64,000 bases of DNA from Balanoglossus misakiensis (Eukaryota > Animalia > Hemichordata), in the NCBI GenBank assembly GCA_040954595.2, contig CM082596.2, positions 9,754,461 to 9,818,460 of the forward strand, given 5' to 3'. This document shows, piece after piece, positions 4,240 to 64,000 of this stretch (its first letter is position 1; every line of letters starts with the position of its first letter). The notes beneath the pieces are model-generated. The model worked only from the letters and a program-made list of their open reading frames with translations. It was not told the origin of the DNA and did no database searches. A program made the position numbers and the translations under genes.

Positions 4240-4410
4240 GTTATCAACGTGATTTTTGAAAACCTGATATGGTAATTTATCACTTCCTACAGTTTTCCTA
4301 AGTTTGGAGTGATTAACAACTTTGGTTACCTCCTCAAGTAAGATGTTATGATTTAAAACAGTACTATGATGGTAGCCTTCTGTCAACTGCATTTCTAGTT
4401 TCATTTCATG
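4240..4410 (-). mobile_element. Decayed LINE ORF2 fragment (pre-RT region), duplicated at about 7885-8055
   Basis: ILLEEVTKVVNHSKLRKTVGSDKLPYQVFK resembles the 'EEV..L...KA.G.D.IP.E.LK' LINE motif. Confidence 0.55.
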
Positions 4411-6520: not shown

Positions 6521-6525
6521 TGTGT

Positions 6526-7231: not shown

Positions 7232-7536
7232 TGTTGATATGGAGACAGAATCAGTGTGGTCTCCCTCAACGTCTGGTTCAGTCCCATCAATCAATCAATC
7301 AAGCAACAAAGTTTATATAGCGCCAAAATCCCCCCCCCATGCTCTACAGTTGTAGCCGTTATAGTAGGGTTTTCCTTCAAGATGAAACCAGACACGCTCT
7401 CAGTGCCCTTGTAATCAGGGATGTCTGTCAGAACTTCGTTATCTGTCGTTTCGTATCGCTGCATTACGGTTAACTCTAACGGGGATTCTGTTTCAGTCAT
7501 TCTAGTTACAGATTTAGTATCAGCGCCAGTATCTTC
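7232..7536 (-). pseudogene. Duplicated fragment of the Thr/Ser-rich exon of the lectin-like gene
   Basis: Near-identical to 16849-17154 (LELTVMQRYETTDNEVLTDIPDYKGTESVSGFILKENP). Confidence 0.9.
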
Positions 7537-10860: not shown

Positions 10861-10867
10861 GGTGTGT

Positions 10868-32135: not shown

Positions 32136-33315
32136 TTTTTAGGTCCCATTGGTATGTACCATGGGACCTTATGGGATTGATTGCGTCTGTATGTATGGAT
32201 GGATGTATGGATGGATGTATGTCTGTATGTCCGTCCACATCAACAACTTGAAAACCACAGCGCGTATGACCTTGATATTTGGTGTGTAGATGCAGGCAGG
32301 GCTGTAGATGGGAGTTTGTTCAAATGAAGTTGTCATTGCCAAAAATATGCAAATTAGCTGGGAAAATGTGACAAAACTCGGTAACTCAACAACCACTGGT
32401 CATATTGATTTGAAAATTGGTATGCATGTACCTTATATCAACCTCATACAGTCCTGTATGTTTTGAGCTAATATTATCGATTTCCTATTTTTTATGCATT
32501 TTTTTTTATTTTTCCATGTTATTCAATAAAAAGTCTTCATTTCTCAAAGTGATGGGCTTACTTCTTTGAAATTTAGTATGAAGCTTCCTAATGATTGTCT
32601 GAGTAACCATAGTTTTGTTCAAATTGTTGCAAAATTTGCATATTTATTATTTTGAGCAATATTTGCCATATTTGGTCAATTTTTTTTTTCCTTAAAACCG
32701 CATGCCAGATGGCTTTGCAATTTGGTAGGCATGTTCGTAGGGGTAACCTAAGTAATATGCTGTAAAAAAAATTTATATCTGCATAAATGTGTTATCGGGG
32801 AAACTTTTGCAATTTTTGTCAAAATTTTTTTTGTCTGAAACTGCTTGTCATATTGCATTGAACTTTGGCAGCATGTTCCTTGTAGTGATTGAAGTAAGAT
32901 TTGCAAAATTTTGGTGATATTTGCATATTTGTGTTTTTGCCACTTTTGAACAAATATTTTCTGTGAAACTGCTTGTTGGATTGCTTTGAAATTAGTTTTT
33001 TCTCTGATTGCTTTGAAATTTAGGATATAATTTCATAACACATGTATCTGTTCCAGGGCTGACTGAAAGAAGTTGCTTCTCATTTGTGTTTGTACAGACA
33101 ATTTTTGGTCATTTTTTTTTCTAGCATCAGTTGTAAGACTGCCATGACACATGACAGTTTATTGGGCATGTTCCTTATTAATTTTTTTACATTCCATATT
33201 TCTATATGGTAAGATCATATCTGATAGCAATGTCACCTGTAATTTTTATCTGGTGTGTCACTGTTTCCGCATAATCCTCAAATGGGACCACAGTGTCCTT
33301 GACGCTATTTTTTTT
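32136..33315 (+). mobile_element. Helentron-associated non-autonomous element (HINE/DINE-like)
   Basis: T-run + AGGTCCCAT..ATGGGACCT inverted repeat, (GTAT/GGAT)n microsatellite, and 3' ATGGGACC..gtccttgacgcta + T-run. Both ends match 55564-58100 in reverse. Confidence 0.75.
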
Positions 33316-42452: not shown

Positions 42453-42551
42453 AATCTAATCAATGCCGCAGTGAAGGGTGATGTTGCAAAGATTCAGTCG
42501 CTGATAGCTGATGGATATGATGTCAATGCAAGGGGTAAATACCCAGGGCAG
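42453..42551 (+). CDS. Ankyrin exon A (N-cap-like), phase 0-0
   Basis: ttacag|NLINAAVKGDVAKIQSLIADGYDVNARGKYPGQ|gtaagt, 99 nt. Confidence 0.88.
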
Positions 42552-45500
42552 GTAAGTGTTCGTATTGACCAATGTTTTATACAGAGTCATCGCTCAGGGC
42601 TAGCGTTTGATATTTAATTTTTCACATGCGGTGCATGCAGGAACTTAAAAAAATTGTGTGTAACTGTATTTCAATTACGTGCAACAAAATAACGATAGAC
42701 AGCCTGGGTTTTTGGTAAGTAACAACTTTTAATAGAAATATCTTTTTAAAATAACGAATTTTGTTGAAATAAAATGGATTCTTGGTGCAAACAAGATATT
42801 CCTAATGTCAATTCTTCCACAAAGATAAACTTACAGACACGGAGAGGTCTGCTGCAAGCAGTATTTTTAGGGGTCAACTATGGTGTTTCAAATTCTCTGT
42901 GGCAAGAACTAATTCTCAACTGGGGTGTTTTTCAAGGTCCATCGCACTATTCTGTTTGCAAATACATCATTGCAGTTTGCCACGCCGCTTTCTATAGCAC
43001 CCCTGATGCTGTTACTGTAGTAGCACTAGCTGAACCCCTGAAATGTTCCAGGACCACTTCAACTGTTCACATGTAATATTTTATGCCAGCATTTGAGCAG
43101 AGACGTTTCAGAAACATTTCAATGGTTATGAGTGACTGGCTTTTCACACAACAGTAACACTGAATCAACTAGATATCTATGAACTTCCAAAATACCACAC
43201 ACTCCCAAAATGATATCACAACACCACATTTAGATTGTGCAAAAACAGACCTACACTAGCCCACAAATATAAATAATCTCAATTCAGCGCAGACTTTTTC
43301 ATCAACAGTTCCAGTTTTACCTAGTGTGAACATGGTATCAGTCTACAGTTTGGTTCAATGTGGTTCAACCACATACAGTAATACCTGTCGAAATGGAACA
43401 TGCCGTATCTGGAAAACTGTCTATAATGAACACGTTTTCCTGTCCCCTTGACATAGAACCACGTGTTAAAAGAACCTTTACAAACCAGAAACGTCTGTAA
43501 ACTGAACAATTTCTTCTGTCCCTTTGGATTAGACAGGTTTTACTGTACATGTGTTTTGGTCATAGAGAATTGTCACTCAACCTTAGAAAATACTATTATT
43601 ATGATCTTTCAGATTGAAATCAATATCAGTCTATTACTGAAATAACACACCATCGTAATCGAAACCATTATTACAATAGTGACTGAAGCTCATTGTGATG
43701 AAATTCCTAGAGTTTCCTCATCAAAAGATCAAGCAGTTGACTCACATTGCAAGTATCAGATTTGTGATGTCATTTTTATTCCAACATTAAACGTCTTTAT
43801 TCCAGAATGATTCCACAGCATTGCATGCAGCGTCCTTCAAAGGTAAATTGGATGCTGTCAGGATGTTGATTAGCCATGGTGCAGATGTCAATGCGAAGGA
43901 TGAGGTACGTGAACTGACTTATCACTTTATTATGGATAATGTGGCCACACAATTGGATAATAAAAAAATGCCTTTGAAAAAGACCTAATTACAACACTCT
44001 TATTTTCATCCAAAATTACTTTGCATGATCCAAATTCAATGGGAAGAAACAAGCTAACCCTGAACAAGAAGAGGGAAAGGCCAAAAAGTATTACCCATAC
44101 TGATTTAGTTTTACTAACCATGATACCCTTGGGATCCAGCCATAGGAAGGACAGTGGGACACATTGCACTCTAAATTTAACAATCTTTACAATTTAGCCA
44201 AAGATGTTGAACCATAGTGTATTTGACACATTTGTTCCGAATGAATAAATATGTTCCAGAAAGTAAATTTTGATGCATTTTTTTGTGTTTCACCAAATTT
44301 AACAAATTTTTATTTTTTTTCAAGCCATCTCTGAAATTTTGCTGGCAATCTTTTTTTAAATCTTCCACATCCCCTCCATCCTTAGTTAAGCTATGGAGTC
44401 TAAAACATCCAATGTTAAAAACTATATGACCAGTCAAAGCGTTTTCCTCGCTGTTAGAATCAATTGAGATTCTTCACCGTCATTCTTTGATCTGTATTCA
44501 TTTTAACAGTCGGCAATTTTCATTTTGTGTGTAGAAGGACTGTGCATTATCCTTTCAAATCAGTCAGTATGCCATTCTTGCTTGTTTTTTGCAATATGGC
44601 TGATACTTTTGATATTTGTTTATTTATTTGTAGGTTTGTTTGTTTGTTTGTTTAAAGAAACCTCATATTACATTTCAATTTTTGTGACATTGTTCCCATG
44701 CTTCTCCTTCATTACTTACAGGATGGAGTCACCCCTTTGAATGATGCAGCAGGGTTTGGTGGTGAAGGCTGTGTCAGATTGTTATTGGAACACAAATCTG
44801 ATGTTACCATACAAACCCAGGTAAATACCAACTTGACTTCTGCAGGTTAATCTATCAGTATGGAATGATTTATTCATTCATTTTTTGTTTGTTTGTTTGT
44901 TTGTTTGTATGTTTTTTGTTTAAGGAAAATGACACATTACGTTTAATTTTTGTGACATTGTTCTCATGCTCCTCCTTCATTACTTACAGTGGGGAGACAC
45001 CCCTTTGCACTCTGCAGCAAGGAGGGATGTTGGTGAAGGCCGTGTCAGATTGTTATTGGAACACAAAGCTGATGTAACCATACAAAACAAGGTAAATACC
45101 AACCTGACTTCTGCAGGTAAATTCTAAAAGTATGAGCTTTCTCAATAGTGCCATTTCCTCTGTAGTTTTCTTAGTAAATTGTGTCTGGGATACAATGTAT
45201 ATATTTGTCCATTGCCCTTTGAATCAAAACTACTCCCTCCATTGGTCAGGTGTTGTACAGATAGACTGATGACAGTCCATGCCAATCCTATCACAGAACG
45301 TATCAGATAGGGTGATTGTCTGTCGGCCTCCAGCATCTGCCAACTCCTGTCTGGTACCTAATACAATTCATCATAAGGAGGTGCCATATAATTTGTCACT
45401 GTCCTTTGAATCAAAATTACTTCCTCTCGGCCAGACACAGGCAAGTATTGATTCATTATGGTGATGTGATTGTCTCTCCTATATCTGAGACATTTGATCT

Positions 45501-48500
45501 CCACTGTGAGCAATTTGGAGTTATGAGAAAGGGGGATTGTCTCCAGCATCTGCCAAAAACTGTCTTGTTGAACATAAGGATGTTGTTGTTTATTGCATTG
45601 TTTATCGTCAATCTTTTGTGGTTTAAATAATAATCTCATTATTGGCACAGCGATTTCTGTCTGTCCTTCTGTAGACAGATTTTGTTCCACTCATATCTTG
45701 AGAGAAATTGAATCCAATGATATGAAATTTTGTATGTAGCATTGTTATGATAAGTTCTAGATCTGATAAGATTTTGGTGGGTATGGCTTATTAATAAATT
45801 CTCCTTTGCATATTTGTGTGTGGTCGAACGTTAATTCACTACATACACATGTAGAATAACATAAACAGTGTCTTGTATCAAACATAATTAATGGAAAAAG
45901 GGAAGCGAGAAAGAGAGAGACTTTGTCCCTTTAATATTCAGGAATTTACTTTTCTTGTATACGTACACTCTTATAATGATTGTAAATCTTGAGAATGGCT
46001 ATCAAGTTGACAACCCTCGCACAAGTACATCATGTACATAAACAAAAATAGTCTGGTTTGTGGAGCCTCCTCCCTTTTTTACAGGAAGTACTTTCAAAAT
46101 ATGTTTATGCAATCAGTCCACACTCATGCTCAGTTTTGTGTCAGAATTATAGTCATAGCAACATTTTGAGTAAGACTTTACCAGAAGAACTTGTTTTCAT
46201 TGCGGCTCTGATTGGGGCCGTTTTAAAAAGGGGTTTGTTTGGCAACTTTTAGGACCGAAGGACGGATGCGCAGCCATTGTCACATCACACATGTCAAGTT
46301 GGGGACTTGCTGGGGGCAGGGGTGCTTGTTGACGGTGCCGAGAGGAGTCGGCCAGTTTTAGCTTGTACTTCAGGCCGAATAGCACAGTGCCAACCCAATT
46401 TACCTTTTATAAACTTTATAAAATATAATACATTTTAACATTAAATTGTTCAGTCGGATGATTTTTTTCATCATAATGAGCAACACAGCGGCAGCATTTG
46501 GATTGCTCTTTCTCTTGGAAATAGCTCAAGCTTATAAAACATGAGGTCTGTGCGGCTCCACTCCTCAGCTTCTCATCACTGTCTGTCACTTACCCAATCA
46601 TTTCAAAGGGGGTGATCAAGATGGCCAGAACAGCAAGTTTTAACCAACCAGGTTCCAGAACCTGAGAGAAGGTGCTAAAAGCATGCAATAGATATATTGA
46701 TGAGATAAACATTGGGAACAATAGGATGAAGGGAAGTGTGACTGGTCCAATCTGTTCTGTTTTAGTGTGGGGCACGGCTGGAATGGTTACACAAATGTCC
46801 TTGAAAGTTAGTGCTACTGTGGCTTCCAATGTTATCTCTTATGAAGAGTTTTGATAATTTTGTTTGTTCTTTATATTACATGAAAAGAATGACTGCATTC
46901 ATTGCATTTAATTTTGTTTGCCACACATTCCCATTGGCCACAGTGTCCACTGAAGTCTTTCTTTGGTTATTAGACTTTTTGATGCAGTGCGATGGAGAAA
47001 GGGAATCAGTGTTAACTTTCTTCAGATGGTTTTTTTTGGTGAAATTCAAGTTTTTTTTATTTAAACGCTATTTATACAAATAACGAGTGACACCATTGCA
47101 CAACTCTACTTGATATTGTTGGACCACTCAGTAGAAATTTATTTTAATGATGATTGATTTATCCCTTGTCACATACAATTTCTCTGTTATTTCCCCTTTG
47201 ATCGACATCGTTCAGTCTGCACAGCTTGGCTACTTTGTGCTGAGAACAGTCTGATGCCCTCCTACAGGAAATAAACATAGTTTGGTTAGCTCAGATGTTT
47301 GATCTGTTTCCACATAAATCTCCACATATCTCAAATTTTTCATCATATTGGAGATGAGATGTGATTATTCAAAATTCTTCTGACAATTCTACTAAATGTC
47401 ACTGTAGTTGTTTGCTAAATCTTCTTCTATATTGTGCAGGTTGCAAAAATAAATTGGTCCCATTCACTAACATCACATCACTGTCAGTTTTTTGATAGAA
47501 AATCATAAATAAAGTTCAGTTTAAAATTGGTGTATTGGTTATCCGTAATGTTATCTGTTTTGCAAGTTGTCAAATTTGAGTTTGTTTGTGAATTATTTAT
47601 AGTAACTTTTCTTTCTGTATCAACTGGCAGATATTTTGTCAGAATTCTTTTAGCTCGTTAAAATGCATGTATAAAACTGAATTACACATCTTGTGTGTAG
47701 AGTCGATACTGTTTCTGTTCAAATGCCATTTACTGTTGGTTAATATTATCCACAAGGGAGTTTGCGATTATTTGTCGTTTGTGTGTTTGTTCGATCGTTC
47801 ATTTTAACAAAATAACCTCATGTTACATTTCATTTTTCTTCTCATCATGCTCCTCCTTCATTACTTACAGAATGGAGACACCCCTTTGCATTATGCAGTA
47901 AGAGGGTGTCGTGGTGAAGGCCTTGTCAGATTGTTATTGGAACACAAAGCTGATGTGACCATACCAAACAAGGTAAATACCAACATGACGTCTGCAGGTT
48001 AATTCTGTCAATGCGGATATATTTATTCATTTTATTGTGTGTTTGTCTATTTGTTTGTTTGTTTGTTTGTTTGGTTAAGGAAATTTCACATTACATTTCA
48101 ATTTTGTGACATTATTCTCATGCTCCTCCTTCATTACTTACAGACAGGAGACACCCCTTTGCATTATGCAGCAAGGAGGGATGGTGGTGAAGGCCTTGTC
48201 AGATTGTTATTGGAACACAAAGCTGATGTGACCATACAAAACAAGGTAAATACCAACCTGACTTCTGCAGGTTTATTCTATCAATGCGGATATATTTATT
48301 CATTTATTTGTTTGTTTGTTTGTTTACGAAAATTTCACATTAGATTTCAATTTTTTTGACATTATTCTCATGCTCCTCCTTCATTACTTACAGGATGGAG
48401 ACACCCCTTTGCATGATGCAGCAAGGAGGGATGATGGTGAAGCCCTTGTCAGATTGTTATTTGAACACAAAGCTGATGCTAACATACGAAACAAGGTAAA

Positions 48501-51500
48501 TACCAACCTGACTTCTGCAGGTTTATTCTATTGATGCGGATATATTTATTCATTTATTTGTTTGTTTGTTTGTTTGTTTGTTTGTTTGTTTAAGGAAATT
48601 TCACATTAGATTTCAATTTTTGTAACATTATTCTCATGCTCCTCCTTCATTACTTACAGGATGGAGACACCCCTTTGCATGATGCAGCAAGGAGGGATAA
48701 TGGTGAAGCCCTTGTCAGATTGTTATTGGAACACAAAGCTGATGCTAACATACGAAACAAGGTAAATACCAACCTGACTTCTGCAGGTTTATTCTATTGA
48801 TGCGGATATATTTATTCATTTATTTGTTTGTTTGTTTGTTTGTTTAAGGAAATTTCACATTAGATTTCAATTTTTGTAACATTATTCTCATGCTCCTCCT
48901 TCATTACTTACATGATGGAGACACCCTTTTGCATTATGCAGCAAGGTTTCGTGATGAAGGCCGTGTCAGATTGTTATTGGAACACAAAGCTGATGCTAAC
49001 ATACAAAACAAGGTAAATACCAACCTGACTTCTATAGGTTAATTCTGAAAGTATTGAAATATTTTTTTGTTTTTTTTTGTTTAAGGAAATTTCACATTAT
49101 ATTTCAATTTTTGTGACATTATTCTCATGCTCCTCCTTCATTACTTACAGGATGGAGACACTCCTTTGCATTATGCAGTAAGGGATGGTGATGAAGGCCA
49201 TGTCAGATTGTTATTGGAACACAAATCTGATGTGACCATACAAAACAAGGTAAATACCAACCTGACTTCTGCAGGTTTATTCTATCAATGCGGATATATA
49301 TTTATTCATTTATTTGTTTGTTTGTTTGTTTATGGAAATTTCACATAATATTTCAATTTTTGTGACATTATTCTCATGCTCCTCCTTCATTACTTACAGG
49401 ATGGAGACACTCCTTTGCATTATGCAGCAAGGAGGGTTGGTGGTGAATGCCTTGTCAGATTGTTATTGGAACACAAAGCTGATGCTAACATACAAAACAA
49501 GGTAAATACCAACCTGACTTCAGCAGGTTTATTCTATCACTGCGGATATATTTATTCATTTATTTGTTTGTTTGTTTGTTTAAGGAAATTTCACATTAGA
49601 TTTCAATTTTTGTGACATTATTCTCATGCTCCTCCTTCATTACTTACAGGATGGAGACACTCCTTCGCATGATGCAGCAAGGAGGGATGATGGTGAAGCC
49701 CTTCTCAGATTTTTTTTGGAACACAAAGCTGATGCTAACATACGAAACAAGGTAAATACCAACCTGACTTCTGCAGGTTTATTCTATTGATGCAGATATA
49801 TTTATTCATTTATTTGTTTGTTTGTTTGTTTAAGGAAATTTCACATAATATTTCAATTTTTGTGACATTATTCTCATGCTCCTCCTTCATTACTTACACG
49901 GTGGAGACACTCCTTCGCATGATGCAGCAAGGAGGGATGGTGGTGAAGGCCTTGTCAGATTGTTATTGGAACACAAAGCTGATGCTAACATACAAAACAA
50001 GGTAAATACCAACCTGACTTCTGCAGGTTAATTCTGAAAGTATTGAAATATTTTTTTGTTTTTTTTTGTTTAAGGAAATTTCACATTATATTTCAATTTT
50101 TGTGACATTATTCTCATGCTCCTCCTTTATTACTTACAGGATGGAGACACTCCTTTGCATTATGCAGCAAGGGATGGTGATGAAGGCCATGTCAGATTGT
50201 TATTGGAACACAAAGCTGATGTTTACATACAAAACAAGGTAAATACCAACCTGACTGCTGCAGGTTTATTCTATCAGTGCGGATATATTTATTCATTTAT
50301 TTGTTTGTTTGTTCGTTTACGGAAATTTCACATTATATTTCAATTTTTGTGACATTATTCTCATGCTCCTCCTTCAGTACTTACAGGATGGAGACACTCC
50401 TTTGCATTATGCAGCAAGGAGGGTTGGCAAAGGCCTTGTCAGATTGTTATTGGAACACAAAGCTGATGCTAACATACAAAACAAGGTAAATACCAACCTG
50501 ACTTCAGCAGGTTTATTCTATCAATGCGGATATATTTATTCATTCATTTGTATGTTTGTTTGTTTAAGGAAATTTCACATTAGATTTCAACTTTTGTGAC
50601 ATTATTCTCATGCTCCTCCTTCATTACTTACAGGATGGAGACACTCCTTCGCATGATGCAGCAAGGAGGGATGGTGGTGAAGGCCTTGTCAGATTGTTAT
50701 TGGAACACAAAGCTGATGCTAACATACAAAACAAGATAAATACCAACCTGACTTCAGCAGGTTTATTCTATCAATGCGGATATATTTATTCATTTATTTG
50801 TTTGTTTGTTTGTTTAAGGAAATTTCACATTAGATTTCAATTTTTGTGACATTATTCTCATGCTCCTCCTTCATTACTTACAGGATGGAGACACTCCTTC
50901 GCATGATGCAGCAAGGAGGGATGGTGGTGAAGGCCTTGTCAGATTGTTATTGGAACACAAAGCTGATGCTAACATACAAAACAAGGTAAATACCAACCTG
51001 ACTTCTGCAGGTTAATTCTGAAAGTATTGAAATATTTTTTTGTTTTTTTTTTGTTTAAGGAAATTTCACATTATATTTCAATTGTTGTGACATTATTCTC
51101 ATGCTCCTCGTTTATTACTTACAGGATGGAGACACTCCTTTGCATTATGCAGCAAGGAGGGTTGGTGGTGAAGGCCTTGTCAGATTGTTATTGGAACACA
51201 AAGCTGATGTGACAATACAAAACAAGGTAAATACCAACCTGACTTCTGCAGGTTTATTCTATCAATGCGGATATATTTATTCATTTATTTGTTTGTTTGT
51301 TTGTTTATGGAAATTTCACATTAGATTTCAATTTTTGTGACATTATTCTCATGCTCCTCCTTCATTACTTACAGGATGGAGACACTCCTTTGCATTATGC
51401 AACAAGGAGGGTTGGTGGTGAATGCCTTGTCAGATTGTTATTGGAACACAAAGCTGATGCTAACATACAAAACAAGGTAAATACCAACCTGACTTCAGCA

Positions 51501-54500
51501 GGTTTATTCTATCACTGCGGATATATTTATTCATTTATTTGTTTGTTTGTTTGTTTGTTTAATGAAATTTCACATTAGATTTCAATTTTTGTGACATTAT
51601 TCTCATGCTCCTCCTTCATTACTTACAGGATGGAGACACTCCTTCGCATGATGCAGCAAGGAGGGATGGTGGTGAAGGCCTTGTCAGATTGTTATTGGAA
51701 CACAAAGCTGATGCTAACATACAAAACAAGGTAAATACCAACCTGACTTCAGCAGGTTTATTCTATCAATGCGGATATATTTATTCATTTATTTGTTTGT
51801 TTGTTTGTTTAAGGAAATTTCACATTAGATTTCAATTTTTGAGACATTATTCTCATGCTCCTCCTTCATTACTTACAGGATGGAGACACTCCTTCGCATG
51901 ATGCAGCAGGGAGGGATGGTGGTGAAGGCCTTGTCAGATTGTTATTGGAACACAAAGCTGATGTGACCATACAAAACAAGGTAAATACCAACCTGACTTC
52001 TGCAGGTTAATTCTGAAAGTATTGAAAGATTTTTTTGTTGTTGTTTTTTTGTTTAAGGAAATTTCACATTACATTTCAATTTTGTGACATTATTCTCATG
52101 CTCCTCCTTCATTACTTACAGACAGGAGACACCCCTTTGCATGATGCAGCAAGGAGGGATGATGGTGAAGGCCTTGTCAGATTGTTATTGGAACACAAAG
52201 CTGATGCTAACATACAAAACAAGGTAAATACCAACCTGACTTCTGCAGGTTTATTCTATCAATGCGGATATATTTATTCATTTATTTGTTTGTTTGTTTG
52301 TTTGTTTGTTTGTTTGTTTGTTTGTATAAGAAAACACATTTCATTTCAATTTTTGTGACATTGTTCTCATGCTCTTCCTTCATGACTTACAGAAAGGAGA
52401 CCCCTTTGCATTTTGCAGCATATGTCATATAATTTTGTCATTGTCCTTTGAATCAAAACTGCTCACTCTGTCGGGTCAGGTGTTATACAGGCAGGTGTGG
52501 AAACGATTTGCATTCCTTTCTTTCTTTCTTTGTTAATCAATCAATTGTTGTTCTATTCATTGATCATCACCCCCCTGTATCATGAACATCACAAGGCAAT
52601 GCATTGAATTCAGCTCTTCCAGCTAGTGGCCGCACTTGCTTGATTTCCTGCGTGTGTCTCTGGGGATGAAAAGAATGCATATGCGTCTTTTCCTAATTTG
52701 CATATTTTGAATGGGTGTTCCAACGTGAGTAACCGTTCATTGACTTCCAGCTCGCATCGAATACACGTTAGGGACTGTTTTTACGGCTGGGGGGGGGGGC
52801 AAGTTTGGGTCATCGATTTTCAAAATCAGGCCGACCCCCCCTTCACCCTGGACCAAAAAATGATGACCCCCCCTTTGACAGACCCAAAATATGATGACCC
52901 CCCCCCCCCCCCCCCGCTGAAAACATTCGCCGTGCTGATCCTATGTACACTGTATGCAATAAAGGGAATGAGGCTCCTCACACCTCAATTATAAATTTCT
53001 TAAAGTAATTGAAGTATATATAATAGTATATCGTTGCAATAAAAAATATATGAACAAAATAAAATGACAAGTCAATACAATAGAAAATTTAAGAAAATTT
53101 TGTAAAATACGGTGCTCAAAGTTGCATTCGAATGAACTCTAAAGCAAATTAACTCAATGTTAGGCAGGACAAATTTTAATTTTGCCACTCCACTCAAAGT
53201 AAACATCGGGGGTAGGGTGGGTAGAAGTCTGCCGTGGTACACTAGACAAACCAGCGAATAAATGATATGTGGCGAAGAATGGAGGGGGAGGGGTGTGCGA
53301 GGGGGTGTCCCCCTCCCACATAAGAAAATTTTGTAAAATATGTAGCTCAAAGTTGCATTTTTATGAACTCAAGAGCAAATTATCTCAGTGTTTGGGAGGA
53401 CCTAAAATTTGACTTATAGGTGTGCGTGCCTCAATCATCTGATGAATGTATTCATCTATGAAAATTTGTGATCCATTTTCAGAACGTAGTGACTCCTTGT
53501 CAAGAGGCAGGAAGGAAGGCTGGGCGGGGTGCAGGCACCAATATTGCAAGAGCCTTTGTGGAATATCATTTTGACAATGAGAAAGTATATCAGGCAAGTA
53601 TTGAGTTAGATTTAAAAGGGCAAGGTTACTCACTTTTGATAAAACAGTGAAATTGTGTCAGTTACCGACCACCTCTATATAGTGGCCACTTTGTTACAGT
53701 CCCTGTGCAGTTAACATGGGCAATTATTGACTTGTATATACAGGCCACCTGTCTATTAAGGCCAATTTAGGAAAGTCACTCTGACTGGCCAATTTGGACT
53801 GTGAGATTTGGCTGTATTTCAGTTATTTACCAATTGGCTCTTTCTGTTGTTCTAAAAGATGCTCATTGACCAGTTTTATAAAGCTTACCGGCAACTCACA
53901 CCTGACACATGGATATTTAAATCCATTTATTTTTTACCAAAATTATTTAACAATAGTGTCCATAATATGCATGGTGTGGTATAATTGTCATAATCCTGTA
54001 CTTTACAGCTAGTTCATTTAAGCAATAAAACACCCCCAGCCATGGTATACCACTCGATTTTGACCAGTTCACGACATATACGCACTCGCTATCGCTCCTG
54101 CGTATATGTCGTGAACTGGTCAAAATCGAGTGTGTATATGTCGTGAACTAATCAAAATCGAGTGTTATACCATGGCTGGGGGTGTTTTATTGCTATTATA
54201 TTATGCCAGTATATTGAAACTTTGCATAAAACATTTTAAAAAGGCATTTTCTTTGACTATGCTATATGACTGTGGTATATGGCTAATATATCACAGTCAC
54301 GTGTCGTGTCTCGACCAATAAAATAGTGTGATTTACACCATCAATATACTGGTATAATATAATCAATCATATATGTTCTGTTTTCATCAATGAAAATACA
54401 GGCAGTTATAAACTCAGTGTATGACAGAGATGACAAAAGAGACCTGATCAACCATCATAAGGTACGTCATAATGTTGATAATAAATGGCTATGAAAACAT

Positions 54501-57500
54501 ATCATATCACTAGTGTATTTGAATTTATCTTCTATATTTATAACATGGAAAACATAAAACCAGACTGTCATATAAATTTTTAACTACATACTTATTCTAT
54601 TGTGCCAGCTAGGAAGGCATTAAAGGGACATTACCTATAACTTTTGGCTTTATTTCCAGATTTTTTTCCTTTTGTGTACAAAATGCAATTTCATGTTCTT
54701 CTCCAAACTGCATGCTAATATGCCCAGTACTCAACTTGTGTATATTGCCTGTCTCTGTAACAACCATTGTTATTGTTGACTCATGAATTCTAGTCCGGAC
54801 TTCAATTCAAATTTTGCAAAATAACAATGTTGAATATACACAAAGAGTACACAACTATCGAGGTGTGCGTCACAAAGAGATGACAAACTTATGCAAATAG
54901 AAGTTATGGAAAAAATATGTTAAATTTGGCAGCTCATGAGGCTTTAACTATGCATTATTTCTATAGTGTTAATGATAGCTTCCACATCATAAGCACATCA
55001 TAATAGTGTAGTTAACAATGTAAATTATATTTTTTGATACTAGCGTTTTTATCAATATCTTTTCTGAAGCAAAATGTCATGTGACTTCTTTGAAGACATG
55101 GTGTTTAATTGAAAGGCATGTAAATTGAGTGTAAAAATTCCCAATATATATAACACATAACATATCTGTTCAAATTCTGACAGGTGTTTTCCCGCCAAAA
55201 AGAATTCACAGCACTCATGAGACAACCTGGTGTCAAACGTAATACTACAAAGATTGTGTTAGCTGGATACGGTGCGAATGGCAAAACTACGCTCAAAGAA
55301 TCATTGCAGCGGGTGTGTAGAAATCTTTGATTATAAATGCCAATTATTGCTGTTTTTGAGGAGTGAAGGATTTGTGCAAATATTAAAGTTTTCATGAAGA
55401 CTACATTTCAGTGGAAATCAGGGTACATATTTTGTTGACCAACCAATTCTCCAAATATTTTATATTATTACAATATGATTGGCATTAATCAAGCTTGCTG
55501 ATTGGCCCGAGTCGCGGTTTATATCCTCAACGAGAAGACCTGAACCCTGAACAGTGAATAACTAAAAAATAGCGTCAAGGACACTGTGGTCCCATTTGAG
55601 GATTATGCGGAAACAGTGACACACCATAATAAAAATTACAGGTGACATTGCAAGCAGATCTGCAATAAGCATATCTGCTCTGGATGACAAGATATGGAAA
55701 AGTAGGTCAAAGGTCACCTGAGGTTATGCAAAATTTGGGCAAGAAATGTTGACCCTATACTGGTCCATGTTCAACAAAAATCAAACCTATAGCCCTATTG
55801 GTTAGCCTGGAATTAGGTATGCACATAATTAATGAGATATGCAGGTGTCACAGGTGACCCCCAATTTTGGCTTTTCAATTTTAGTCCCAACCCTCCAAAC
55901 GCTAAGTCTGTACCTGCTCTGGATGCCAAGATATGATAAAGTAGGTCAAAGGTCACCTGATGTCATGCAAAAGTTGGGCAAGAAATTTTGACCCTATACT
56001 GCATATACTGGTCCAGGTTCAACAAAAACCAAACCTATAGCCCTATTGGTTAGCCTGGAATTAGGTATGCACATAATTAATGAGATATGCAGGTGTCACA
56101 GGTGACCCCCAATTTTGGCTTTTCAATTTTAGTCCCAACCCTCCAAACGGCAAGTCTGTACCTGCTCTGGATGCCAAGATATGATAAAGTAGGTCAAAGG
56201 TAACCTGAGGTCATGCAAAATTTGGGCAAGAAATTTTGACCTCATACTGGTCTATGTTCAACAAAAACCAAACCTATAGCCCTATTGGTTAGCCTGGAAT
56301 TAGGTATGCACATAATTGATGAGATATGCAGGTGTCACAGGTCACCCCCCAATTTTGGCTTTACAATTTTAGTCCCAACCCTCCGAAAGCCAAGTCTGTA
56401 CCTGCTCTGGATGCCAAGAAATGGTAAAGTAGGTCAAAGGTCACCTGAGGTCATGCAAAATATGGGCAAGAAATTTTGACCCTATACTGGTCCATGTTCA
56501 ACAAAAACCAAACCTATAGCCCTATTGGTTAGCCTGGAATTAGGTATGCACATAATTAATGAGATATGCAGGTGTCACAGGTGACCCCCAATTTTGGCTT
56601 TTCAATTTTAGTCCCAACCCTCCAAACGCTAAGTCTGTACCTGCTCTGGATGCCAAGATATGATAAAGTAGGTCAAAGGTCACCTGATGTCATGCAAAAG
56701 TTGGGCAAGAAATTTTGACCCTATACTGCATATACTGGTCCAGGTTCAACAAAAACCAAACCTATAGCCCTATTGGTTAGCCTGGAATTAGGTATGCACA
56801 TAATTAATGAGATATGCAGGTGTCACAGGTGACCCCCAATTTAGGCTTTTCAATTTTAGTCCCAACCCTCCAAACGGCAAGTCTGTACCTGCTCTGGATG
56901 CCAAGATATGATAAAGTAGGTCAAAGGTAACCTGAGGTCATGCAAAATTTGGGCAAGAAATTTTGACCTCATACTGGTCTATGTTCAACAAAAACCAAAC
57001 CTATAGCCCTATTGGTTAGCCTGGAATTAGGTATGCACATAATTGATGAGATATGCAGGTGTCACAGGTCACCCCCCAATTTTGGCTTTACAATTTTAGT
57101 CCCAACCCTCCGAAAGCCAAGTCTGTACCTGCTCTGGATGCCAAGAAATGGTAAAGTAGGTCAAAGGTCACCTGAGGTCATGCAAAATATGGGCAAGAAA
57201 TTTTGACCCTATACTGGTCCATGTTCAACAAAAACCAAACCTATAGCCCTATTGGTTAGCCTGGAATTAGGTATGCACATAATAAATGAGATATGCAGGT
57301 GTCACAGGTGACCAATATTTTGGCTTTTCAATTTTAGTCCCAACCCTCCAAACGCCAAGTCTGTACCTGCTCTGGATGCCAGATATCTGAAAGTAGGTCA
57401 AAGGTCACCTGAGGTCACCCAAATTTGGGCAAGAAATTTTGACCCTATACTGGTCCATGTCCCACAAGAACGAAGCCTCTAGCCCTATTAGTTAGCCCAG

Positions 57501-60500
57501 AATTAGGTATGCACATAATTAATGTGTTAAGCAGGTACTACAGGTGAGCCCAAAATTTTGCCTTTTATTTTGGCCCCATTGTGCTCACTGACCAATAGAC
57601 AGTCACTGTACAGGACTATTGCACAGACCAGAATTCCACAATAAGACGTGGACATAGCTTAACCATAGAGGTATAAGTAAAGGTATAACTTTAATAAAAA
57701 GACTAAAAAATTCATAAAAAATAAAGCATCGATGATATCAACTTAACACTTACGGGTCGATGTGAGGTTGACATATGGTACATGCATACCAATTTTTAAA
57801 GCAATCTGACGAGTAGTTGTTGACTTTCAGAGTTTTGATAAATTTCACATTTTTCCAGCTAATTTGCATATTTTTGGGCCTGGCAACTTCGTTTGGACAA
57901 ACTCCCATCTACAGCCCAGCCTGCACCTACACACCAAATATTGAGGTGATACGCGCAGCGGTTTTCAAGTTTTTGATGTGGACGGACATACAGACATACA
58001 TCCATCCATACATCCATACATCCATCCATACATACATACAGACGCAACCGATCCCATAAGGTCCCATGGTATATATGCCTATACCAATGGGACCTAAAAA
58101 TAACCGAAATGGGACACATAGAACAGAACGCCTCGCCTCGCTCAGTGATTATTTCCCGCCAAATATGCTAAGTTTCACCTGGGAGGTCTTATATCCGGAA
58201 TCAAATACTCTCGCTTGCCGTTTATAAGTTTACAACCTCTAAATTGTGAGAAAATCATCACTTATGTTCATATATTACAATGCAGAACTTTGTGCAAGCA
58301 AAATTGACTCGACGGTCAGAAGAGAAAGCACCTTTACCAGGGAACATGCAGTACACACCAACACCCGCCATAGATGTAGCCACATTATCCATACCCAAGA
58401 TTGGCAAGTTCAGTGTGTGGGACTTTGCAGGACAAACAGAATACTATGTCACACATAATATGTTCCTAAGAGTCGAGAATGCAGTGGTTTTATTGGTCTT
58501 CAAAATGGCTGAGGACAAGCAGGATGTAGTTTGGACACCAAGAAAACTTATGCAACAGCAGAGACAAGAGGTGGGTTGTTGTTTTTTTTGTTACTGATGA
58601 TAAGTGATATTAATATTTTGGGCAATTATGGAATAAAGGTAAAGATGAAACTCAGAAAGGGCACAGTGCATATATTACAATATTTTTTTTATTACTAAGC
58701 AGTGCATCAGTGAATTAGGTGGTGCAATATTGTGAATGAAATTAAAGTAAAGATGAATGGCACAGTATATATATTTGTGAAACATTTATCTCTTTTTGTT
58801 TTTATCCAGATTTAGGGACTGATTGAATATAATATGATTGATGACTTTATATTCTTCTTCATGTCTTTCTTTAATAGGTGACATCATGGCTTGCATTCCT
58901 TAAGGCAATCATACCACAAGATATGGATGAGGGTGGGAGTAAACCAAAAGTGATATTGATTGGAAGCAAGGCTGATTTGTTGAAAGCTGAACACAAGAAA
59001 GAAGGTATGTTCAGTACATGTTTAGATAAAAGGTGACAAGAGCGAGGGTATTTACACAATTGGGAGCCTGGTGTGGGAGTACACTCAATCTGATTAAAAC
59101 CAGATGTAGTGTTGGGCGCTGTCTTTACCTTTGCTGATTCTTGGCTGTTCTGTTCGAAAGGGACACCCATACTACATCTGAACCTATGCAAAAGGAGATC
59201 TCATTACTATTCAACATTTTACCTATTCAGATAGTGTGATTGATGTAGAATTTCACCGGATGCTTTCAAAAAATACAAAACAGCACCAAAGTGGCCTCTT
59301 CTGTGTATATGTCCATACTTTGTAAATAAAAATCTATCAAGAGATCATTACTTTTTTCTTGATAGCTGAATTGGTGATGAGGGAAATACTCCAGACAGCT
59401 CAGAAGACCTTTGGCAAATACCTGAATATTCTTGATGAGACATTCATACTGAATTGTCACAACTCGCAGCATAATGATAAGCACAGATTGCGTGAATGTC
59501 TACGAAGTGCAAAGGTATGGTTTTATAGATATTCTGCAATGTGTGACTGGATTGAACATGTTAATTCATTAGGGCCATATTTGACAAAGGCATGCTTTAC
59601 ATCACCTTAATACTCTCATGTAATGCATAGAGTCCAAGAAAGCCAACTATCAGATAGTAATAACTGAACTCTTATCAGTGGGAAATAAGTCAAGGTTGTA
59701 TACTTTTGACTTACCGGGTATCAGAACTGTCTAAAAGGGCGTTCTCACTGGCACGTTTACACTGGTGCTACATCGGTGTAGATTTGACACCGACGGAAAA
59801 AAACAAGTGAGAACGCTTTACACCGGTGTTGGGCCGGTGTTAATTTGCGACAGCGATGGGTGGTGGGTCAGGGCCAGTGCTGGGCCAGCGCTCCGACGCA
59901 AATAATCAGTGAGAACGCAAAGATAAACAAACACCGTTCAAAAGCGCCACCCTGCAGTGCCTTTTGGGTATGTTTATTAGGTATAGCCCATTGTCTTTGG
60001 TCAGTTTCCATTGTTAAGTCAATCACACTGGATGCGAGTGGTTTTCAAACCATTCGCAGTTTGCCAGGTCTGCAACACTTCAGTCTGCTACCAACTTCCA
60101 GAAGGTTCTCTCGATCACCAAAAAGCCGAGGCATTTTCCATTTATGGATTAACATTCATTTACTTCTAAACATTATCAAAACTGTCACAAAGTCGTCTAG
60201 AACGTATATGCAGGTATATAAACTGCAACATGTTGCTGTAATGTCCTCGAGATCCTCAATTTTGTTAGTTGCCGTGTTGCTAAACATGGCCATTTAGACA
60301 GTGTTTATTTCAAAACAGTGGCCAAAAGTTTAGTGTGTGGACGCAAGGAGATTCTGTGGGCTAATCCCCTGTGTTTGCAGAGAGTAAACACTGGCATAAC
60401 ACCGGTGTCCAAACTTTTAGTGAGAACAAGACTTTAAATAATGGGCTGTGTCTGTAAAGGGTGAATATCACTGTTGCCAGTATTGTTCGAGTTGCTTTTC

Positions 60501-61453
60501 TGAATGTTCATTTCACCAAACAACAGTATTATGGGGGTCATCGTTAAACCCCGGTGCGGGGTATAAAAGACCCCCCAAATCAGTGGCGAATCTTAATGCC
60601 GTTTGACTGACAACAGACAACACCAACGATCTTGGCTCTATGAAAATCGGCCCAAACAGGTCCAAGCATAAAGAATTACACCACACAACGACAGTAGTTG
60701 GCTTTATAAACACACACAACATAAAGTTATCGACGAAAAAGTACACGAGCTTATGAAACAACGATGATTTTGGGAGAAATCTGGTTTCAGTGCTTTTCAG
60801 AAGCGTCCCTGGGAAACAATAACCACGCCATTCAAACAGTTGTCAATCGCGTGGAAGTGTGAAGTGTTCAATTATTTTCTGTGTACATGAGAGCAATTAC
60901 ACAGTCATTATGCACGACGACCACTCCCAAATAAACAACTATACAAACACACGTTAATCCGAACCCCAGGACTTTCCGCACCGGGGTTTAAGACGTTTTT
61001 GAAACATCTCAGATGAAATACTGGCGTAAATTATCATGTGTGAATGGTTTAAGTGGTCCTGAAACGTCTCAGATTTGAGACGGCTTTGGTCAGACCTGAG
61101 CCAGTTTAAGGATTAACACCTCTCCGCAACCCATTGTTTGTGTGTGTGTACACAAGGCGACTTAAAGGATTAATGCTCTGTGTTTACTATTGGCAAATAG
61201 TGTCTATGAAATGTTTTGAATTTTACCCTGTCTGGACATGAACCTGGTATATGTCGCTGTGTTAATGTTACAGAGAGAAGAATACATACCAAAGTTGTGT
61301 GCTAAGATACTTGATGGAAGAAGCAAATGGATTGTGAGCAGTTTCCCGGTCATCAAATGGAAAACATATATAGAAAGAGTGAAAGAGTTGGATCGTTTCA
61401 TTGATGAAGAGTTTCTAAAGAAAGCTACGAGATACCTTCACTACCTTGGGGAG
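42453..61453 (+). CDS. Multi-exon ankyrin-repeat Roc-COR (ROCO family, DAPK-like Roc) protein gene; start exon not identified, 3' part probably beyond the window
   Basis: 22 single-ankyrin exons (42453-52223, three with dead splice sites) followed by phase-compatible exons 53483-53593, 54402-54461, 55184-55312 (P-loop GYGANGKTT), 58286-58570 (YTPT, WDFAGQTEYY), 58878-59004 (ILIGSKAD), 59366-59514 and 61274-61453 (COR start, ..RYLHYLGE). Confidence 0.9.
43376..43545. mobile_element. Tc1/mariner-type MITE with TA TSD
   Basis: TA-cagtaatacctgtc...gacaggttttactg-TA. Confidence 0.72.
43806..43904 (+). CDS. Ankyrin exon B, phase 0-0
   Basis: ttccag|NDSTALHAASFKGKLDAVRMLISHGADVNAKDE|gtacgt, 99 nt. 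Confidence 0.9.
44722..44820 (+). CDS. Ankyrin exon C (diverged member of the cassette family)
   Basis: ttacag|DGVTPLNDAAGFGGEGCVRLLLEHKSDVTIQTQ|gtaaat, 99 nt. Confidence 0.75.
44990..45091 (+). CDS. Ankyrin exon D (cassette family)
   Basis: ttacag|WGDTPLHSAARRDVGEGRVRLLLEHKADVTIQNK|gtaaat, 102 nt. Confidence 0.8.
47820..52420 (+). repeat. Tandem array of 18 ~250-bp intron+ankyrin-exon cassettes plus one truncated remnant
   Basis: Exons: 47871-47972, 48144-48245, 48394-48495, 48660-48761, 48914-49012, 49151-49249, 49400-49501, 49650-49751, 49900-50001, 50140-50238, 50387-50485, 50634-50735, 50884-50985, 51125-51226, 51375-51476, 51629-51730, 51879-51980, 52122-52223. All are 99 or 102 nt and open. 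Remnant at 52393-52420. Confidence 0.95.
53483..53593 (+). CDS. C-cap-like/linker exon with a GC donor
   Basis: tttcag|NVVTPCQEAGRKAGRGAGTNIARAFVEYHFDNEKVYQ|GCAAGT, 111 nt, phase 0-0. Confidence 0.7.
54021..54363. mobile_element. Hairpin-type non-autonomous element (long palindrome + second inverted pair)
   Basis: agcaataaaacacccccagccatggtata...tataccatggctgggggtgttttattgct (54021-54194), then attatattatgccagtatattg...caatatactggtataatataat. Confidence 0.8.
54402..54461 (+). CDS. Linker exon of the ROCO gene
   Basis: atacag|AVINSVYDRDDKRDLINHHK|gtacgt, 60 nt, phase 0-0. Confidence 0.65.
55184..55312 (+). CDS. Roc GTPase exon with the P-loop
   Basis: gacag|VFSRQKEFTALMRQPGVKRNTTKIVLAGYGANGKTTLKESLQR|gtgtgt. 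Absent from the ORF track. Confidence 0.88.
55564..58100 (-). mobile_element. Helentron-associated non-autonomous element carrying an internal satellite array
   Basis: Termini are the reverse complements of those of 32136-33315, with (CATA/CATC)n at about 57986-58040. Confidence 0.78.
55675..57565. repeat. About 240-bp tandem repeat, about 8 units, with a 727-bp three-unit higher-order repeat
   Basis: cctatagccctattggttagcctggaattagg recurs every 239-249 bp. Identical ORFs at 56285 and 57012 are offset by 727. Confidence 0.93.
58286..58570 (+). CDS. Roc exon (switch I/II)
   Basis: gcag|NFVQAK..YTPTPAIDV..KFSVWDFAGQTEYYVTHNMFL..QRQE|gtgggt, 285 nt. Confidence 0.92.
58878..59004 (+). CDS. Roc exon (G4 motif)
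   Basis: aatag|VTSWLAFLKA..KPKVILIGSKADLLKAEHKKE+G|gtatgt, phase 0-1. Confidence 0.88.
59366..59514 (+). CDS. Roc C-terminal exon
   Basis: gatag|(A)ELVMREILQTAQKTFGKYLNILDETFILNCHNS..LRECLRSAK|gtatgg, phase 1-0. Confidence 0.85.
59737..60432. mobile_element. Possible PIF/Harbinger-like MITE
   Basis: gggcgttctcactg...tagtgagaacaagac degenerate termini, with internal AGTGAGAACGC and ACCGGTGT repeats. Confidence 0.45.
61274..61453 (+). CDS. COR domain N-terminal exon
   Basis: ttacag|REEYIPKLCAKIL..FPVIKWKTYIERVKE..EEFLKKATRYLHYLGE|gtaagt, 180 nt, containing the 'LH..GE' COR motif. Confidence 0.88.
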
Positions 61454-62080: not shown

Positions 62081-64000
62081 TTAATAATAATAATAATAAT
62101 AATACTTTATTTCAGACTTTAAAAAAAAGTCCATATACCCAAAAGAGAGAAGAAAAAAAAACACTAATGAAAATACTCTGGAAAATCTGAAACTGAGACA
62201 CACACACACAAAAAAAAAACTCTGCAAAATTACATGATATACAATTGCTTTCGCCAATGTTTGAAAAATATGCTGTCAGTTGCTCTATCTGATGAACAGA
62301 TCGCATCAAGTAAAACATTAGAAGAATTTTCGAGTCTACACTTAAAACTGTACATATTGCGTCTAAAAACTTCACCAAGTGACAATACATGGTTTGTAGC
62401 AAACATACCCGATGCACTGCAAAATGGCGGAAGACCGAGAAGTCTTCTCCAAACATTATTGTACATAGTTTTAAATTTTTTCATCGGTTTAACTTTAAAG
62501 GATGCCCACAAACTGCAACAGTAAATATTACTACAATATGCCAAAAATACAACTTTCTTCACATCTTGACTACAATGTTGAAAATGTCTCAATAGCATGT
62601 TTGCTCTAACGCAAAATGCTCTTCTCTGTCGTTCAATATCTTCATTATCACAACCATCACAAGATATTACATGGCCCAGATAGGTGTGTTCAGGAACAAA
62701 CTTCAAAGTGATGTCATTAAGTTTAACCGAAGGAATTCTTTGAACGCTCATATTCTTCCCATTAAAAAGCATGCACACAGTTTTACTAGAATTATAAATG
62801 ATATCATAATCCTTGCCATAAATTTCACAAATTCTAAGAAGACGGCGTAGACCCTTAACACTTGGACTGAGTAGAGTCATGTCGTCAGCGTAACCTGAAG
62901 TGTTAGCGCTGACACCACACATGGTACAGCCAACTTTGGCTTTACAGAGTGCATTGATAAGATCATCAATGTAGACATTAAAAAGATAGGGAGAGAGTAC
63001 TCCCCCTTATCTTACACCGTTAGAAACAGAAAACAACTCTGAGGTTTCATTACCCCACAACACAGTAAACAATTGATTTCTGTACCAGTAATATAAAATT
63101 CGAACAGCATACAAGGGAACATTCCTGTCGATGAGCTTGTTAACCAGTTTAAAGTGATTAACTCTGTCAAAAGCTTTTGAAGCATCCAGAAAACAAGTAA
63201 ACACTGGTCCTCCATTGCTGGTGTAGTAGCTAATGATTTCTTTAAATGCAAATAAACACAGGTCAGTTGAATGTTCTCGCTTGAAACCAAATTGTAAATA
63301 ATGAGAGGTAAGAAACTCCTCACAACGAGAAAGTAAAATATGCTCAAAAACTTAAGAGAAAACAGTTGCTAGTGCTATCGGCCGGTAGTTACTGGCATCA
63401 CTACAAAGCTTAGTTTTATCCTTAATAATTGGAACTAAAATAACTTTGATAGCCTCAGTTGGCAGGTAACCATGAACAATCATAGCATTAATACAACAAG
63501 TCAAAATGGGTAAAATAGAGGAGTCTGAGAATTTGAGGTGCTCAGCTGAAATATTGTCAATGCCAGCTGTCTTGTCGTCAGGTAACTTATGTATAGCAGA
63601 AATTACTTCGTCTTCAGAAACATACATATCAGAAGAAAAGTTAACATACTTCATTTTCTCCTCGATGTCATTTTTACCAGTCTGAGCCTGGACAGAATTC
63701 AAAATATCACTGAAATGCTTGTGCCACATAATTGCAATTTCACTCTCACCAGTCGCTCCACCTACAGTGTCAGAAAGTGGCGTTTTTCTGCTAGTTTGCT
63801 TTCTGACTTCCTTCCAGAAGTCGTTCTGTTTGTGGCAGCATAAATTGTCAGCCATCTTGTCAGCCCTATTTTGATTCTCAATCTTTTTACAAGCACGTAA
63901 AGCATACTTAAAACGAGCTCTGAAAGATTTCTTGGTTTCAAAAAGCGGGCCTTGTTTAGGTTTACCCCCATTAACCCATAATAAAAACATGGAACGGGCA
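62081..64000 (-). mobile_element. LINE (L2/CR1-group-like) ORF2 RT and 3' end with (TTA)n tail, disabled by stops
   Basis: NYRPIAL, FLDASKAFD, GVR*GGVLSP, YADDM, YLG. In-frame stops at 63352 and 63007. AATAAA followed by (TTA)n at 62081-62111. Confidence 0.92.

Follow-up and report, generated by a model that had tools for sequence, protein, structure and literature searches.

In the ROCO genes of brown algae one LRR is encoded per exon (Zambounis et al., PMC3341825; Teng et al., PMC11378527), and these genes are candidate immune sensors for which diversifying selection has been reported (PMC3341825, PMC11378527). Some NLRs of fungi contain ANK repeats of high internal conservation (Dyrka et al., PMC4986451; PMC13449251), put at 85% in PMC4986451. 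A search of the open-access literature found no ankyrin-exon arrays in animal ROCO genes. This article describes one in a window of 64,000 nucleotides from the hemichordate Balanoglossus misakiensis (assembly GCA_040954595.2, contig CM082596.2, positions 9,754,461 to 9,818,460), where, as judged from the sequence, the array lies inside an open-frame ANK-Roc-COR gene. The reading that we favour, at roughly an even chance, is that one-repeat ankyrin exons, 20 in all, form a young tandem array, likely produced by unequal crossing-over and gene conversion, and that its variation is probably near neutral, any tilt in one loop being mild. The exons that flank the array are the following, with related proteins cited as P0002, P0003, and so on:

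42453-42551, + strand, N-cap ankyrin exon, phase 0-0, AG/GT ends; tblastn 58% to relative P0003 residues 10-40
43806-43904, + strand, first full ankyrin exon, single copy; Pfam Ank E 3e-10; 54% to P0003 41-77
53483-53593, + strand, C-cap ankyrin exon with a GC donor (AG...GC ends), open in frame 0; by eye like the P0002/P0003 C-cap
54402-54461, + strand, linker exon of 60 nt, open, AG/GT ends
55184-55312, + strand, Roc exon 1 with P-loop GYGANGKT; 55-60% to four relatives
58286-58570, + strand, Roc exon 2 (WDFAGQ); Pfam Roc E 6e-8; 57-61% to 8 P. flava proteins
58878-59514, + strand, Roc exons 3 and 4 (58878-59004, 59366-59514)
61274-61453, + strand, first COR exon; 39-49% to the COR-A start of relatives; the remaining gene lies beyond the window

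A 10-exon model that includes one cassette reads through 446 aa with no stop, and the flanking exons are intact. The Roc GTPase domain of ROCO proteins is recognized at 58286-58570 (Pfam Roc 33.4 bits against a cut-off of 27); a Pfam search of the COR exon 61274-61453 alone gave no match. The closest relatives are 'DAPK1-like' proteins of Ptychodera flava (~60% identity). In relatives the order of parts is kept and the number of full ankyrin repeats ranges from 2 to 19; the RefSeq model P0012 holds 19 repeats strung in series, and P0003 has a single repeat at the array's place. The relatives carry COR-A/COR-B and fold like LRRK/Roco, and the model of P0003 (pLDDT 82) matches the Roc-COR fold of LRRK1/2 and Chlorobium Roco. 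Their 'DAPK1-like' names are automatic only, with no kinase domain seen in these proteins: this DAPK1 hallmark had no Pfam match in P0002 or P0003, an absence that is read from the relatives, as the start exon of the window gene, further upstream than 42453, was not located. Of 10 relatives, three give a weak Pfam Death match (best E 0.0025), the MyD88 death domain is matched at E 0.075, and a death-fold end probably follows Roc-COR here, as in relatives. Linked for the most part one after another, the 17 splice-intact cassettes would form a long ankyrin solenoid preceding the Roc-COR GTPase switch, and the protein may act as an intracellular sensor whose binding surface is altered mainly by the gain, loss, and shuffling of whole repeats.

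The 20 cassette-family exons of the initial annotation were all recovered, 18 of them in the main array and two upstream, and the array contains the following features:

44722-45091, + strand, pair of older cassette exons (44722-44820, 44990-45091), their DNA 81-85% identical to that of the main array
47871-52223, + strand, main array of 18 cassettes, each an exon with one ankyrin repeat; in the 4 cassettes scanned, Pfam Ank E 8e-10 to 8e-7
48914-52121, + strand, four-unit higher-order repeat, present at least 3 times; mean differences at lag 4 of 8.6
48914-49012, + strand, cassette with acceptor AT in place of AG, predicted to be skipped; nearest downstream AGs out of frame
49900-50001, + strand, cassette with acceptor AC, predicted to be skipped from its splice-site reading
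50634-50735, + strand, cassette with donor AT, predicted to be skipped from its splice-site reading
52393-52420, + strand, truncated, frameshifted remnant of a further cassette, with an acceptor and no donor; 88% match, unit positions 1-120

The repeat unit of exon plus intron is ~250 bp long (period 250, 17.1 copies, 90% matches at the DNA level), and every one of the 20 cassettes encodes one ankyrin repeat in a phase 0-0 exon, of 102 nt in 15 cases and 99 nt in five. The cassettes have a mean amino-acid identity of 79%, above 85% in some subsets; three copies are identical to one another, and the 17 splice-intact cassettes encode 16 distinct peptides. Their introns measure 138-171 nt with identical strong splice sites. 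That haplotypes or reads have been stacked into a false array by the assembly is barely credible. The window does hold other near-perfect duplication (3897-6347 versus 7542-9992, 99.6%), but the 18 units of the main array all differ from one another, by 2-33 sites, with none identical as whole units, and their variants are structured in a four-unit period, with exon changes that preserve the frame. Mean differences fall to 8.6 at lag 4 against 15-18 at lags 1-3 and 5-7, a value reached in none of 20000 shuffles, and each of the exons 48914, 49900, 50884, and 51879 is followed by intron haplotype B. The four-gamete test is failed by 78 of 231 site pairs (Rm 5), and the cassettes are recombinant mosaics. 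Expansion likely proceeded by unequal crossing-over, and reshuffling by gene conversion. The locus offers a clear snapshot of ankyrin solenoid growth via exon-plus-intron duplication.

Among the 18 copies, 56% of pairwise amino-acid differences fall in codons 8-18 (11 of 34 codons), for which 32% is expected from length, in keeping with the description of variation as concentrated in one segment. All 11 of the peptides listed after the His are present, as are the turn variants (AN/VT/VY, Q/R/P, and D/N/T/G), and the segment has 14 distinct peptides among 18 cassettes; its clustering beyond chance is nevertheless borderline within the exon (best 33-nt window p 0.12, best 21-nt window p 0.044), and the introns cluster more strongly (p 0.001-0.002). 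The framework, said to be almost invariant, is largely so, with exceptions in TPLH, which reads TPSH in 6 of 20 cassettes, and in LL, which becomes FF or LF in two copies. Its near-invariance mostly reflects youth and homogenization, because similarity is equally high among the introns and among the exons. These introns had been described as differing mainly in microsatellite length, yet outside the microsatellite (n=17) their 113 columns contain 35 substitution alleles, with a second haplotype block among them, and the exon-versus-intron comparison finds them (pi 0.072) about as divergent as the exons (pN 0.088, pS 0.058). Most exon differences do change the amino acid, as first observed, since 33 of 39 distinct exon alleles are non-synonymous; neutral expectation already accounts for 72-77%, and the binomial p of the excess is 0.19 (kappa 1), 0.16 (intron kappa 1.18), or 0.047 (kappa 3).

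It is also conceivable, if improbable, that the expansion is decaying, with most cassettes skipped or misfolded and a gene that, if working, uses few repeats. Splice sites have been lost in three of 20 cassettes, one truncated remnant follows, and the core Leu at ANK 8 is replaced by Ser in six cassettes, a residue never found in the relatives' [TS]PxH motifs (Leu in 67 of 68), in addition to the Leu-to-Phe changes of two copies. Core and conserved positions present no significant deficit of amino-acid change (7 on 19.7 sites; 8 versus 11.1, p 0.18), that is, no significant framework constraint. Against decay, however, the helix-2 stretch (ANK 20-29) holds only 8% of differences where 29% is expected, the flanking exons are intact, and none of the 20 cassette exons contains a stop or frameshift, indels being in-frame only, although just 1.3 stops would be expected in 20 exons (P(0)=0.27); the same absence weighs against near-neutral variation. 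On the favoured reading, as every exon is phase 0-0, cassette skipping keeps the frame, and splice-site loss would therefore be tolerated.

The initial annotation placed the variation on the DARPin binding face and attributed it to diversifying selection. Variable sites, mapped by alignment to DARPin chains and published positions, include library positions 3, 10, 14, and 33, but at position 5 just one of the 20 cassettes differs, and the hot spot is the helix1-helix2 loop (ANK 15-19; 10 alleles on 10.7 sites, p 0.003 uncorrected), which is constant in the libraries. Library positions hold just 36-38% of cassette differences (enrichment p 0.21 with 18 copies, 0.044 with 20). Among relatives, near-identical arrays were found in 5 of 163, and there 29-74% of differences lie at library positions (mean 50% versus 21% expected, at the protein level only). 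Arrays of relatives include those of XP_077996865.1, XP_070546715.1, and the Saccoglossus protein P0022, of which 11 of 13 repeats were used. In the P. flava array, which is independent, the helix1-helix2 loop again varies most (rho 0.37, p 0.03). Selection of new residues at ANK 3, 10, 13-19, and 33 of the binding rim, as in fungal NLR ankyrin arrays, is weighed against near-neutral variation, and we regard it as possible though doubtful. Segment pN (0.152) exceeds pS in the segment itself (0.026) and in the exon, as well as intron pi, while calibrated p values for selection lie at 0.07-0.29.

The per-codon dN/dS check gave nominal p of 0.002 and 5e-5 in a tree-based M1a/M2a-type site test, with omega of 3.1-3.6 in the segment versus 1.0-1.2 elsewhere; the same model also flags the core Leu-to-Ser site (0.99), which speaks against a selected rim. 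Under a recombination-keeping null, in which each allele's carrier set is kept (466 runs per setting, 16/18 units, grid version; observed 2dL 9.8 and 5.2), these values become 0.13-0.29. Tree-based per-codon dN/dS is inflated here because of recombination, and the tree-based test was rejected as selection evidence, the same-carrier-pattern null reaching the observed value in 13-29% of runs. The result carries a wider warning, as on such cassettes the null passes the nominal 5% line, a false positive, in 20-36% of neutral runs.

When the mutation spectrum is kept, tests give p of 0.07-0.2 (0.07-0.14 when scan-corrected), and these are not lower partly because the segment is G-rich (14 of 33); among the intron bases G varies most (10 alleles on 13 sites), and G-based intron rates predict 15.3 segment alleles where 20 are observed. 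With positions fixed beforehand from a relative, 14 are found against 10.6 expected (p 0.13), and p is 0.13-0.17 with the spectrum kept and 0.04-0.06 with a uniform spectrum. The segment N rate is 2.4x the pooled intron and synonymous rate (p 0.003, the segment having been picked after the data were seen), and allele placement gives p of 0.025-0.056 for N overall and 0.015-0.03 for the fixed segment, both computations having scored 2 synonymous alleles as non-synonymous. Every test tilts to an excess of amino-acid change, at a power that is low with 74 alleles. The excess of segment clustering over what would come from recent copying, shuffling, and mutation bias is borderline; selection for a binder library is possible, and the cassettes probably vary almost neutrally, any tilt toward amino-acid change in the helix1-helix2 loop being mild.

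The label of library would also need combinatorial use of the exons. Dscam-like choice of one or a few cassettes per transcript, yielding a somatic binder library, is very unlikely, even with all cassettes in phase 0-0, the single repeat of P0003 at the array's place, and the report that repeat exons of brown-algal ROCOs are alternatively spliced (PMC11378527). A stretch near 53270 can pair with the pyrimidine tract of the unit (-31.9 kcal/mol; p 0.017 for that intron, one of four introns tested), but the pairing is weak and G-U rich, the stretch is predicted to fold on itself (-22.8), and it would cover the acceptor rather than free it. The short introns with their identical strong splice sites impose no steric block, three copies are identical, and models of relatives hold their repeats in series. 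Skipping of ankyrin exons was found in none of four isoform or model pairs of relatives, which differ in Roc exons or the N-terminus, a weak result since the models are automatic.

A broader reading, which we consider unlikely, is that acorn worms possess an undescribed ankyrin-Roc-COR-death sensor family, the exons of which are amplified, converted, and variably spliced, with a binding rim diversified by selection, giving a receptor repertoire from one locus and an animal counterpart of the brown-algal exon-shuffling ROCOs. Were its selection and variable splicing true, an invertebrate deuterostome would be diversifying its receptors by repeat shuffling, as is known from brown algae and fungi, here with ankyrin attached to a ROCO switch, and an immune role would be indicated for a gene family that has automatic names only. 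Because the relatives' arrays vary at library positions, it is plausible that the family serves in variable sensing, in the manner of brown-algal ROCOs and fungal NLRs.

Compared with these systems, the gene has in common with brown-algal ROCOs a predicted Roc-COR and N-terminal repeats that are each one same-phase exon, duplicated and shuffled, with some copies splice-dead; recombination and inactivated repeat exons of the brown-algal type are both found (Rm 5, the four-unit repeat, three lost splice sites, and one remnant). The brown-algal repeats are LRR in phase 2, whereas those of this animal gene are ankyrin in phase 0, were duplicated with their introns as near-identical units, and include no inverted copies that we found. 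In fungal NLRs, as in this array, ankyrin repeats that are nearly identical adjoin an NTPase switch, evolve in concert, and vary at a few surface positions; internal conservation here is 79% in amino acids (20 copies) and 90% in DNA against the fungal 85%. Fungal-type NLRs are further marked by repeat-number polymorphism between individuals, whereas the cassettes described here come from one haplotype. In place of NACHT or NB-ARC the switch is Roc-COR, its repeats lie N-terminally and are intron-split, unlike those of fungi, and variation is concentrated more in the helix1-helix2 loop than in the inner helix and beta-hairpin. DARPin libraries (positions per PMC3308923) have the same 33-residue fold, but positions 2 and 5 are almost fixed in the cassettes, and positions 8, 15-19, 30, and 31 vary in the cassettes and are fixed in the libraries. 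Hemichordate 'DAPK1-like' proteins (such as XP_070546803.1, XP_070546715.1, and XP_070550397.1) have the same part order, ~55-60% identity in Roc, and, in XP_070546715.1, a GDTPLH/LLEHKA-type repeat common to both; the long P. flava array is old (53% mean identity) and the present one young (79%), with a derived one-residue insertion in 15 of 20 cassettes.

The cassettes form a real array in which each unit consists of one ankyrin-repeat exon and its intron, and related copies lie at three further positions:

47871-52223, + strand: main cassette array, 18 copies of a ~250-bp unit
44722 and 44990, + strand: two older cassette copies
52393, + strand: truncated cassette remnant

The exon of each unit is 99 or 102 nt long and encodes one ankyrin repeat. 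All 20 cassette exons are phase 0-0 and stop-free. A canonical splice site is missing from three of them (the acceptor at 48914 and at 49900, the donor at 50634), and the 17 splice-intact cassettes encode 16 distinct peptides. Within their first 26 nt, the array introns (47973-52121) hold CTGAC, which resembles a branch point, and a CAG-GT junction ~25 nt past the donor, at which splicing of the donor-less copy at 50634 would break the frame.

Single-copy exons for the N-cap and first ankyrin precede the array; downstream of it come a C-cap exon, a linker exon, the Roc exons, and the first COR exon. When modelled with ten exons, one of them a cassette, the gene encodes 446 residues with no stop. 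The C-cap exon has a GC donor at 53594, and the frame is kept into the next exon. The closest relatives are Ptychodera flava 'DAPK1-like' proteins (57-61% identity, 8/8 matches), followed by proteins of Glandiceps and Saccoglossus, which makes a hemichordate host likely. The predicted structure of one ANK-Roc-COR relative (P0003, pLDDT 82) resembles LRRK1/2 and bacterial Roco structures. Three of 10 relatives give a weak signal for a C-terminal death domain, and the corresponding part of the array gene falls beyond the window.

The initial annotation described amino-acid variation concentrated in one segment of an almost invariant framework. Every segment peptide that it listed was found, and codons 8-18 account for 56% of pairwise amino-acid differences, compared with 32% expected by length. 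The framework is indeed near-fixed, mostly because the array is young and homogenized, but the Leu of the TPLH motif is Ser in 6 of 20 copies, whereas 67 of the 68 corresponding motifs from relatives have Leu there. Most exon differences do change the amino acid (33 of 39 alleles), although this is close to the neutral proportion of 72-77%. Introns, which had been thought to differ mainly in microsatellite length, carry 35 substitution alleles on 113 non-microsatellite columns (π 0.072, versus exon pN 0.088 and pS 0.058). Units four apart differ at 8.6 sites, versus 15-18 at most other lags (0 of 20000 shuffles matched), and a second intron haplotype returns at every fourth intron. The four-gamete test is failed by 78 of 231 informative-site pairs, with at least five recombination points. 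Block duplication via unequal crossing-over, together with patchwork conversion, would give this pattern.

From such variation the annotation had proposed a selected, DARPin-like library. Segment pN is 0.152 against a local pS of 0.026 (bootstrap versus whole-exon pS, p 0.014), and non-synonymous alleles occur in the segment at 2.4 times the rate pooled over introns and synonymous sites (p 0.003), in both cases for a segment picked after data inspection. The suggested dN/dS check was significant in a purpose-built codon-mixture test run on one tree (p 0.002; 5e-5 with introns as neutral reference), but it lost significance against a recombination-keeping null in which the set of copies bearing each allele was kept, placement was random, and the tree was rebuilt (16/18 units, 466 runs per setting). 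This null reached the observed statistic in 13-16% of runs when introns were included and in 24-29% when they were left out; 20-36% of runs exceeded the nominal threshold. For the amino-acid excess, tree-free placement gave p 0.025-0.056; for the 11-codon window that scored best, it gave 0.03-0.14. Base composition by itself would account for 15.3 of the 20 segment alleles, since G makes up 14/33 of the segment and is the most variable intron base (on only 13 intron G sites). Tests that kept the mutation spectrum returned p 0.07-0.14 (scan-corrected), 0.015-0.03 (fixed segment), and 0.016 (exon-only non-synonymous versus synonymous); these and the tree-free tests counted two synonymous alleles as non-synonymous. 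With corrected scoring, variable positions preset from the P. flava array carry 14 alleles against 10.6 expected (p 0.13; 0.04 under a uniform spectrum), and non-synonymous alleles overall number 33 against 29.4 (p 0.20). All of the selection tests lean towards an excess of amino-acid change, with low power, and among those both calibrated and preset under the observed spectrum none is significant.

DARPin libraries, in the designs described in PMC3308923, randomize ankyrin positions 2, 3, 5, 13, 14, and 33, and in one case also 10; the binding face was taken from the account in PMC8229355. In the cassettes these positions carry 11 alleles on 20.7 sites, versus 0.37 per site at the remaining ones (p 0.21, or 0.044 when all 20 copies are used). 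Positions 15-19, a loop that DARPin libraries keep constant, carry 10 alleles on 10.7 sites; this loop also varies most in the older P. flava array and is thus a subfamily trait, which may mark a binding rim or mere tolerance. A Roc-COR profile yielded 143 clusters with E-values no higher than 1e-30. Tandem ankyrins were present in 53 of 163 proteins examined and near-identical arrays in five, where library positions carry on average 50% of differences versus 21% expected, clearly so in Glandiceps (p about 0.001) and Saccoglossus (p 0.0003). At this protein level, positive selection and framework constraint are not separable, and the sequences do show that ankyrin arrays with variable faces expanded repeatedly and independently in the family. 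The Glandiceps array (P0013, XP_077996865.1) alternates two near-identical repeat types, each varying chiefly at positions 3, 5, 10, 13, and 14; it is more cleanly library-like than the window's and better suited to a DNA-level selection test. A selected, DARPin-like library in the window's array is suggested but unproven.

The most likely product is a solenoid of up to about 20 repeats ahead of the Roc-COR switch, built mainly by serial joining of the splice-intact cassettes, with a surface that would be altered by whole-exon gain, loss, and conversion; the RefSeq model of the relative P0012 similarly has 19 repeats. Splicing might instead choose one cassette of many; here a docking-site scan gave a single weak match, predicted to fold on itself. 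Two purine-rich stretches, 53268-53290 and 46280-46303, could by prediction base-pair with the unit's pyrimidine tract (-31.9 kcal/mol) or its donor region (-27.8); this pairing is G-U rich, and 53268-53290 is predicted to self-fold.

Elsewhere, the intron that separates Roc exon 1 from Roc exon 2 holds a separate 248-bp tandem array (55675-57566, 7.8 copies, 91% matches), with a 99-bp inverted match at 33216-33313. Near-perfect duplications within 3897-13113 (3897-6347 matches 7542-9992 at 99.6%; ~530-bp units repeat at 10870-13113) represent recent duplication or an assembly issue. Reverse-transcriptase-like reading frames at 26700-30123 (+, from translations) and about 62900-64000 (-, by eye) presumably belong to a LINE-type element.

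In the open-access literature searched, no report of ankyrin-exon arrays in animal ROCO genes was found; mollusc TIR proteins with ROCO domains are described (PMC9334734). A sensor or immune role for the array gene would rest on analogy only. In the accounts consulted, fungal NLRs carry near-identical ankyrin repeats with the concave face under positive selection (PMC4986451; PMC13449251), and brown-algal ROCOs encode one LRR per exon and have shuffled as well as dead exons; diversifying selection is reported for them (PMC3341825), as is alternative splicing (PMC11378527).
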